From a virus (taxonomy: Duplodnaviria; Heunggongvirae; Uroviricota; Caudoviricetes), in the IMG/VR virus record IMGVR_UViG_2880361019_000006: a stretch of DNA of 36,382 nucleotides; one strand, 5' to 3'. How positions within the stretch are numbered: position 1 is the stretch's first letter; every line of letters begins with the position of its first letter. Positions 16,501 to 19,500 of this stretch are shown here, piece after piece. Made by a program: the position numbers.

Positions 16501-19500
16501 CGGCTCATACCGCAACCGCGCCCGGCGGATTGAGTGCGAAAGCGCCTGCAATGACCCCGCTGATGCCGGATACCTCCACCCGTAAGCTGGTTGCGTGGGA
16601 TGGCACCACCGACGGTGCTGCCGTTGGCATTCTGGCGGTTGCTGCTGACCAGACCAGCACCACGCTGACGTTCTACAAGTCCGGCACGTTCCGTTATGAG
16701 GATGTGCTCTGGCCGGAGGCTGCCAGCGACGAGACGAAAAAACGGACCGCGTTTGCCGGAACGGCAATCAGCATCGTTTAACCCTACCCTTCATCACTAA
16801 AGGCCGCCTGTGCGGCTTTTTTTACGGGATTTTTTTATGTCGATGTACACAACCGCCCAGCTGCTGGCGGCAAATGAGAAGAAATTTAAGTTTGATCCGC
16901 TGTTTCTGCGTCTCTTTTTCCGTGAGAGCTATCCCTTCACCACGGAGAAAGTCTATCTCTCACAAATTCCGGGACTGGTAAACATGGCGCTGTACGTTTC
17001 GCCGATTGTTTCCGGTAAGGTTATCCGCTCCCGTGGCGGCTCCACCTCTGAATTTACGCCGGGATATGTCAAGCCGAAGCATGAGGTGAATCCGCAGATG
17101 ACCCTGCGTCGCCTGCCGGATGAAGATCCACAGAATCTGGCGGATCCGGCTTACCGCCGCCGTCGCATCATCATGCAGAACATGCGAGACGAGGAGCTGG
17201 CCATTGTTCAGGTCGAAGAGATGCAGGCCGTTTCTGCCGTGCTCAGGGGCAAATATACCATGACCGGTGAAGCCTTCGATCCGGTTGAAGTGGATATGGG
17301 CCGCAGTGTGGCGAACAACATCACGCAGTCCGGCGGCACGGAGTGGAGCAAGCGTGACAAGTCCACGTATGACCCGACCGACGATATCGAAGCCTACGCG
17401 CTGAACGCCAGCGGTGTGGTGAATATCATCGTGTTTGATCCGAAAGGCTGGGCGCTGTTCCGTTCCTTCAAAGCCGTCAGGGAGAAACTGGATACCCGTC
17501 GCGGCTCTAATTCCGAGCTGGAGACAGCGGTGAAAGACCTGGGCGAAGAAGGGGATGTATGGCGATACGGCGATCGTCGTGTATTCCGGACAGTACGTGG
17601 AAAACGACGTCAAAAAGAACTTCCTGCCGGACAACACGATGGTGCTGGGGAACACTCAGGCACGCGGTCTGCGCACCTATGGCTGCATTCAGGATGCGGA
17701 CGCACAGCGCGAAGGTATTAACGCTTCTGCCCGCTACCCGAAAAACTGGGTGACCACCGGCGATCCGGCGCGTGAGTTCACCATGATTCAGTCAGCACCG
17801 CTGATGCTGCTGGCTGATCCTGATGCGTTCGTGTCCGTACAACTGGCGTAATCATGGCCCTTCGGGGCCATTTTTCTCTCTGTGGAGGAGTCCATGACGA
17901 AAGATGAACTGATTGCCCGTCTTCAGGTGCTGGGTGAGCAACTGAACCGTGATGTCAGCCTGACGGGGACGAAAGAAGAACTGGCGCTCCGTGTGGCAGA
18001 GCTGGAAGAGGAGCTTGATGACACGGATGACGCTGCCGGTCAGGACACGTCTGTCAGCCCGGAAAATGTGCTGACCGGGCATGAAAATGAGGTGGTGTCA
18101 GCGCAGCCGGGTACCGTGACTGATACGGCTGCTCTGGTCACGGTCGTGGCACTGGTGACGCTGCATACTGATGCACTTCACGCCACGCGGGATGAGGCTG
18201 TGGCATTTGTGCTGCCGGGAACGGCGTTCCGTGTCTCTGCCGGTGTGGCAGCTGAAATGACAGAGCGCGGCCTGGCCAGAATGCAATAACGGGAGGCGCT
18301 GTGGCTGATTTCGATAACCTGTTCGATGCTGCCATTGCCCGCGCCGATGAAACGATACGCGGGTACATGGGAACGTCAGCCACCATTACATCCGGTGAGC
18401 AGTCCGGTGCTGTGATACGTGGTGTTTTTGATGACCCTGAAAATATCAGCTATGCCGGGCCGGGCGTGCGTGTTGAAGGCTCCAGCCCGGCCCTGTTTGT
18501 CCGGACTGATGATGTGCGGCAGCTGCGGCGCGGCGACACGCTGACCATCGGTGAGGAAAACTTCTGGATAGACCGGATTTCGCCGGATGATGGCGGAAGC
18601 TGTTATCTCTGGCTCGGGCGTGGCGTACCGCCTGCCGTTAACCGTCGCCGCTGAAAGGGGGAGGTATGGCCATAAAAGGTCTTGAGCAGGCTGTTGAAAA
18701 CCTCAGCCGTATCAGCAAAACGGCGGTGCCCGGTGCCGCCGCAATGGCTATTAACCGTGTTGCTTCATCCGCGATATCGCAGTCTGCGTCACAGGTTGCC
18801 CGTGAGACAAAGGTACGCCGGAAACTGGTAAAGGAAAGGGCCAGGCTGAAAAGGGCCACGGTCAAAAATCCGCAGGCCAGAATCAAGGTTAACCGGGGGG
18901 ATTTGCCCGTAATCAGGCTGGGTAACGCGCGGGTCGTCCTTTCCCGCCGCAGACGTCGTAAAAAGGGACAGCGTTCATCCCTGAAAGGTGGCGGCAGCGT
19001 GCTTGTGGTGGGAAACTGTCGTATTCCCGGCGCGTTTATTCAGCAACTGAAAAATGGCCGGTGGCATGTTATGCAGCGTGTGGCCGGGAAAAACCGTTAC
19101 CCCATTGATGTGGTGAAAATCCCGATGGCGGTGCCGCTGACCACGGCGTTTAAACAGAATATTGAGCGGATACGACGTGAACGTCTTCCGAAAGAACTGG
19201 GCTATGCGCTGCAGCATCAGCTGAGGATGGTAATAAAGCGATGAAACATACTGAACTCCGTGCAGCCGTACTGGATGCACTGGAGAAGCATGACAGCGGG
19301 GCGACGCTTTTTGATGGTCGCCCCGCTGTTTTTGATGAGGCGGATTTTCCGGCAGTTGCCGTTTATCTCACCGGCGCTGAATACACGGGCGAAGAGCTGG
19401 ACAGCGATACCTGGCAGGCAGAGCTGCATATCGAAGTTTTCCTGCCTGCTCAGGTGCCGGATTCAGAGCTTGATTCGTGGATGGAGTCCCGGATTTATCC

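Follow-up and report, generated by a model that had tools for sequence, protein, structure and literature searches.

In phage lambda, gene E lies between D and FI of the head operon, and classical E mutants of this phage make no procapsids or head structures. Another lambda locus, G-T, is expressed through a ribosomal frameshift that is programmed by design. Asadulghani et al. (2009; PMC2669165) described how defective lambdoid prophages of EHEC O157 Sakai have been inactivated by a combination of frameshifts, nonsense mutations, deletions, and inserted IS elements, head formation being among the functions affected. These prophages (Sp3, Sp4, Sp6, Sp9, Sp12, Sp15, and others) follow the lambda organisation, combine type III effector cargo with mixed lesions, and retain the terminase and most morphogenesis genes. 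The prophage described here resembles them in each of these respects; it differs in its host, Escherichia albertii ST5390, in its specific lesions, and in being an element known from sequence alone.

The window—by which we mean the whole stretch of 36,382 nucleotides that was analysed—is the int-to-tail-fibre portion of a lambda-like prophage. Its left end is formed by an int/xis block (1..1270) on the minus strand, comprising a full-length integrase (1..1074; 76% identity to lambda Int; Pfam Phage_integrase and Arm-DNA-bind_1) and a full-length excisionase (1052..1270; 98.6% identity to lambda Xis). On the plus strand, a 12-base cos site (GGGCGGCGACCT at 10704) and the head genes nu1, A, W, B, C/Nu3, and D (10704..16781) precede E; these are intact and 97–99% identical to lambda. 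Downstream of E, the late genes FI, FII, Z, U, V, G/T, M, L, K, I, and J (17894..31279, +) are full length, H being the exception. Consistently, tblastn with lambda late proteins recovered nu1 to J (E and H aside) at full length, in lambda order and with 87–99% identity, from 10893 to 31273, and GGGAAAG, the slippery site of G-T, is conserved at 20798. Between D and FI of this lambda-type head operon, at 16837..17851 (+), we found a lambda-type gpE gene (HK97 fold) that we interpret—with a probability of roughly 93%—as a pseudogene created by one 11-bp deletion in the course of the ordinary decay of a prophage remnant.

The E span measures 1015 bp, whereas every full-length E match comprises 1026 bp in its own record (86 of 86 phage records and 3166 of 3166 complete E. 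coli genome records). The initial annotation had pointed to the same 1015 bp against the 1026 bp needed, suspected a small deletion of about 11 bp, and placed a change of reading frame within 17520–17560. Our alignments bear out each of these points: exactly 11 bases (CGGTGTCCTAT) are absent between 17548 and 17549, inside that interval. In a three-way alignment with an E. coli prophage and phage PhiR30_1, a single 11-base gap followed position 17548, the remainder being ~98% identical. The alignment to lambda E that had been proposed at the time likewise contained one 11-base gap in an otherwise homologous sequence, and pairwise alignments returned the same single gap at the same position for 12 of 12 intact homologs, including lambda and the E. 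albertii strains 2011C-4180 and 2013C-4143. According to the consensus over homologs, the missing bases read CGGTGTC[C/T]TA[T/C] and cover codons 238 to 241 except for the first base of codon 238. As read from the three-way alignment, the deletion ends carry no short repeats that could have favoured slippage; the junction is blunt and, because it is free of repeats, the gap can be placed unambiguously at a unique position.

The two halves of the gene consequently lie in different frames. The 5′ part (16837..17721, +) is an ORF of 294 aa that starts with the ATG at 16837 and ends at a premature TAA (17719–17721). Its frame-1 product consists of native residues 1–237 (ending ...ELETAVKDLGE) followed by 57 out-of-frame residues (EGDVWRYGDRR...). 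The premature stop falls 130 bases ahead of the normal end, and the C-terminal 104 residues, which make up some 31% of the Pfam capsid profile, are lost. The 3′ remnant (17555..17851, +) is found in frame 2, its 98 codons representing native residues 244–341. This frame is open from 17534 and, from the ATG at 17555, encodes MYGDTAIVVYSG...VSVQLA, with the stop at 17849–17851. When lambda gpE served as the tblastn query, residues 1–237 mapped to 16837..17547 in frame 1 (96.6% identity) and residues 237–341 to 17534..17848 in frame 2.

Profile searches gave the same picture. Of the 329 positions of PF03864 (Phage_cap_E), 1–226 were matched by the 5′ piece and 234–328 by the 3′ piece in separate frames, whereas an intact E homolog covers positions 1–328 in one frame. 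A match to the lambda major capsid protein in PDB 7vi9 was reported for residues 1–247, with conserved identity stopping at ~237, where the frame changes. Because the PF03864 halves fall into different frames and the 7vi9 identity ends at ~237, E is a gene in two pieces rather than an intact variant of reduced length; together with the premature stop, this excludes an intact E homolog of different length, the alternative that the initial annotation had entertained. An NCBIfam search of five proteins, the truncated E among them, returned zero matches. Compared with lambda E, the locus occupies the same position between D and FI, is 96–97% identical at the DNA level and homologous over residues 1–237 and 244–341, but lacks 11 bases, is spread over two frames, contains a premature stop, and has no single ORF that covers the fold. 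In other words, homology and location are those of a functional gpE gene, while the one ORF of ~341 codons over the whole PF03864 profile is not there. Instead, the locus carries what is expected of a frameshifted pseudogene: an indel of a length not divisible by three, when compared with single-frame homologs, and a premature stop, a lesion that recurs in independent sequence data, and further inactivating lesions within the same element (see below for both).

Both frames are open across 17534..17721, and a programmed +1 or –2 frameshift in this zone would join the two halves into a near-full gpE minus ~4 residues. We consider such recoding hardly credible. Unlike lambda G-T, E is neither two-frame among its homologs—all those examined possess a single 341-codon frame, and the layout is not conserved—nor slippery in the overlap. 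There, a scan for X XXY YYZ heptamers, known +1 motifs, and long homopolymers came back empty, whereas the same scan readily recognised the real G-T site. Moreover, the joined product would still lack at least four residues inside the fold.

Exact matches to the 294-aa product and to the 91-bp junction lie on chromosome CP034212.1 of E. albertii 2010C-3449, a human isolate from 2010 that belongs to ST5390 (PMC10673567). The source is thus a single complete chromosome. The junction was found in 0 of 5,426 complete E. coli genomes, and an exact search with the 30-base junction (GACCTGGGCGAAGAAGGGGATGTATGGCGA; ancestral counterpart, GGGCGAAGCGGTGTCCTATAAGGGG) retrieved none of the GTDB species-representative genomes. 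Taken by themselves, these observations would suit an error of one long-read assembly, with the real E being intact. However, product and junction also recur exactly in Logan contigs from SRR3231783, SRR34931430, ERR14095725, SRR35304221, SRR6373707, and ERR6220946, which are 99.99–100% identical to the window over 2.7–9.3 kb and stem from at least six independently assembled runs. A second NCBI assembly (GCA_027565075.1, a draft) matches 12.4 kb of the window at 100% identity and carries the E junction together with the amber stop in H. To our knowledge, the loss of 11 bp in non-repetitive sequence is a typical error of no sequencing platform. An assembly artefact is therefore highly improbable, and we regard the E deletion as a real inherited allele and no sequencing error.

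The draft assembly was retrieved using the exact FI protein as bait for a sister copy, which yielded 41 collection blocks; the status of the lesions was read in this one representative. Its gene table records no product for the E or H intervals, and the 294-aa truncated E is without an NCBI accession or name, both of which fit with E already being treated as a pseudogene. Far from being widespread, the deleted allele is restricted to a near-clonal lineage.

When the 11 bases were put back, a clean 341-aa E ORF resulted, and codons 238–341 of the repaired gene showed zero nonsynonymous differences to the closest intact allele, that of E. coli RM10809-3. The deletion is the sole defect in E. Since it is the only lesion and the repaired ORF is perfect, the deletion is probably recent. 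Using D as bait, we collected many intact E genes that are just 94–96% identical; they indicate the ancestral state, although none is an immediate ancestor. The perfect 3′ remnant and the intact state of the other head genes show only that the lesion is young, and they would permit repair through recombination, or complementation from a related phage. Because the lesion is young, the only change in the gene, and common to near-clonal isolates, it could mark a lineage of ST5390-related strains.

What would the deletion mean for the prophage? In the scenario we favour, a spontaneous 11-bp deletion shifted the frame of E and thereby removed the C-terminal 104 residues, as one step in the mutational decay of an element whose particle-making is no longer under selection, with its cargo genes (for an NleG effector, a PerC-like regulator, and a NanS-p-like esterase) remaining intact while phage genes decay. 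In the HK97 fold, the C-terminal part supplies core strands of the A and P domains. Given this role, and given the phenotype of lambda E mutants, truncated gpE is not expected to fold or assemble into procapsids. Classical E amber mutants offer a close comparison, as gpE is likewise cut short in them and no procapsids are expected; those ambers, however, are suppressible point mutations in a viable phage, as opposed to a natural frameshift deletion in a prophage remnant. For the structural side of the argument, the HK97-type capsid fold has been described in general terms (PMC5701804), and a literature search for residue-level domain boundaries of gpE found only such general fold descriptions. 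We infer that the prophage cannot build capsids by itself. The initial annotation had stated that no lambda-type capsid can form without intact gpE; its reading of a deletion that frameshifts a lambda-type E is supported, and the capsid loss—a consequence drawn from classical lambda genetics—would apply only to this prophage acting alone, given that other lambdoid phages can make good a head defect in trans (PMC2669165).

Truncated gpE, which would comprise the N-arm, the E-loop, and part of the P domain, might conversely have been kept for use as a dominant-negative capsid poison, protecting the host against superinfecting lambda-like phages. Two observations speak for this: the allele has become fixed in a repeatedly sampled lineage, and residues 1–237 as well as the head genes upstream of E are intact. 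Yet we saw no sign of selection: the copies are near-identical, so fixation can be clonal inheritance, and the unused 3′ remnant is preserved as well as the 5′ part. In addition, the neighbouring essential gene H has been knocked out at random too, and, Q being lost and IS1 lying immediately ahead of the lysis cassette, the late operon is unlikely to be expressed normally. We thus judge a capsid poison to be very unlikely and favour the simple loss of E by decay.

The lesion in H, the tape-measure gene (21222..23798, +), is an amber codon at 21636–21638 (codon 139, TGG>TAG). The translation at this site reads AYA*YQG, and the gene is divided into two ORFs that share a frame, one of 138 aa and one of 692 aa; the window has tatgccTAGtat where lambda has tatgccTGGtat, the lambda residue being Trp. 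Independently of the E deletion, this amber codon knocks out a second essential late gene.

The whole early and regulatory region, too, has been deleted. Its place (recombination, N, cI, cro, O, P, nin, Q) is occupied by an IS21 element (istA 2335..3876 and istB 3888..4637, +; Pfam rve/Mu-transpos_C_2 and IstB_IS21) and an IS1 element (insB 4879..5382 and insA 5301..5576, –; Pfam DDE_Tnp_IS1). IS21 begins ~1 kb past int/xis, and IS1 is followed by the NanS-p-like esterase gene and then the lysis genes. Searching the window by tblastn with lambda exo, bet, gam, N, cI, cro, cII, O, P, ninB, ninG, and Q gave no match, and the window holds no ORF large enough for a Q of another type, a repressor, or another early gene. 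From xis to the NanS-p-like esterase gene (1270–6157), we observed only a lambdap35-region-related fragment (1737..1992), IS21, and IS1. By itself, the prophage can neither be induced nor replicate, and it should be unable to activate late transcription, the last point following from gene content, as Q and its promoter region are missing. With the early region missing and H interrupted by an amber codon, no lytic cycle could be completed even apart from E; accordingly, the defectiveness of this prophage does not come from the E lesion.

Defective does not necessarily mean immobile. Int, Xis, cos, Nu1, A, the portal, the protease, and D have each kept their full length. For the defective lambdoid prophages of E. 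coli O157 Sakai, experiments have demonstrated trans-complementation of head defects (PMC2669165). The remnant might thus be excised and packaged in the heads and tails of a co-resident or superinfecting lambdoid phage, spreading NleG and PerC. Against this, the replication and regulatory genes to induce or amplify the element are all gone, and in several independent short-read assemblies the head block forms one unbroken contig from ~10690 to 19114, which suggests that those genomes are without a second lambda-type E gene as a resident helper. On balance we consider mobilisation of this kind unlikely; it would in any case be compatible with E being a pseudogene. Somewhat more doubtful still is that the remnant constitutes a helper-dependent, satellite-like element for which a lambdoid phage supplies gpE, gpH, and late activation—or, with an even smaller chance, that truncated gpE interferes with the capsid assembly of incoming lambda-like phages. 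If true, the NleG and PerC cargo would spread among E. albertii and E. coli by means of a helper-packaged remnant.

Ordinary decay, our preferred explanation, makes the loss of E a case of a kind already known, that is, textbook prophage decay. For annotation, E is to be marked as a pseudogene and the prophage to be classed as a defective, effector-carrying remnant that would produce no particles on its own. The locus also adds a small data point on lambdoid prophage decay in E. albertii in which virulence cargo (NleG, PerC-like) is kept. The genes for the PerC-like transcriptional activator (9887..10201; Pfam), the NleG type III secretion effector (33716..34363; Pfam), and the DUF1737-SASA esterase of the NanS-p kind (6157–8028) all appear intact.

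Two other genes of the prophage, an antirepressor gene and lom, are also broken and add to the signs of decay. Between L and K lies a 1.8-kb moron (24839–26444). We rejected its classification as an IS element, as it encodes an Arc-like repressor (24839..25216, –) and a P22-type antirepressor. The latter is split by an in-frame TAA (25659–25661), with positions 2–37 and 45–114 of Pfam P22_AR_N matched in separate ORFs. A lom (Ail/Lom) homolog at 31349–31947 is frameshifted, Pfam positions 1–119 being found in frame 2 and 118–199 in frame 1. This shift coincides with a run of seven G (31699–31705) and could reflect slippage, phase variation, or a homopolymer sequencing error.

Contigs from independent short-read assemblies map from ~10690–10721, near cos, to ~19114–19131, and three of them end at 19114. 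Such contig ends suggest repeat boundaries common to other lambdoid prophages of the same genomes, where the tail genes may be multicopy and the head block single-copy. The edges of the window are gene boundaries: position 1 is located at the int stop codon, and position 36382 at the start codon of a 441-aa ORF (35057–36382, –) at the right edge. No match to this ORF was found in Pfam or NCBIfam; it matches phrog_5420 (function unknown) over its full length and could represent further cargo adjoining NleG.
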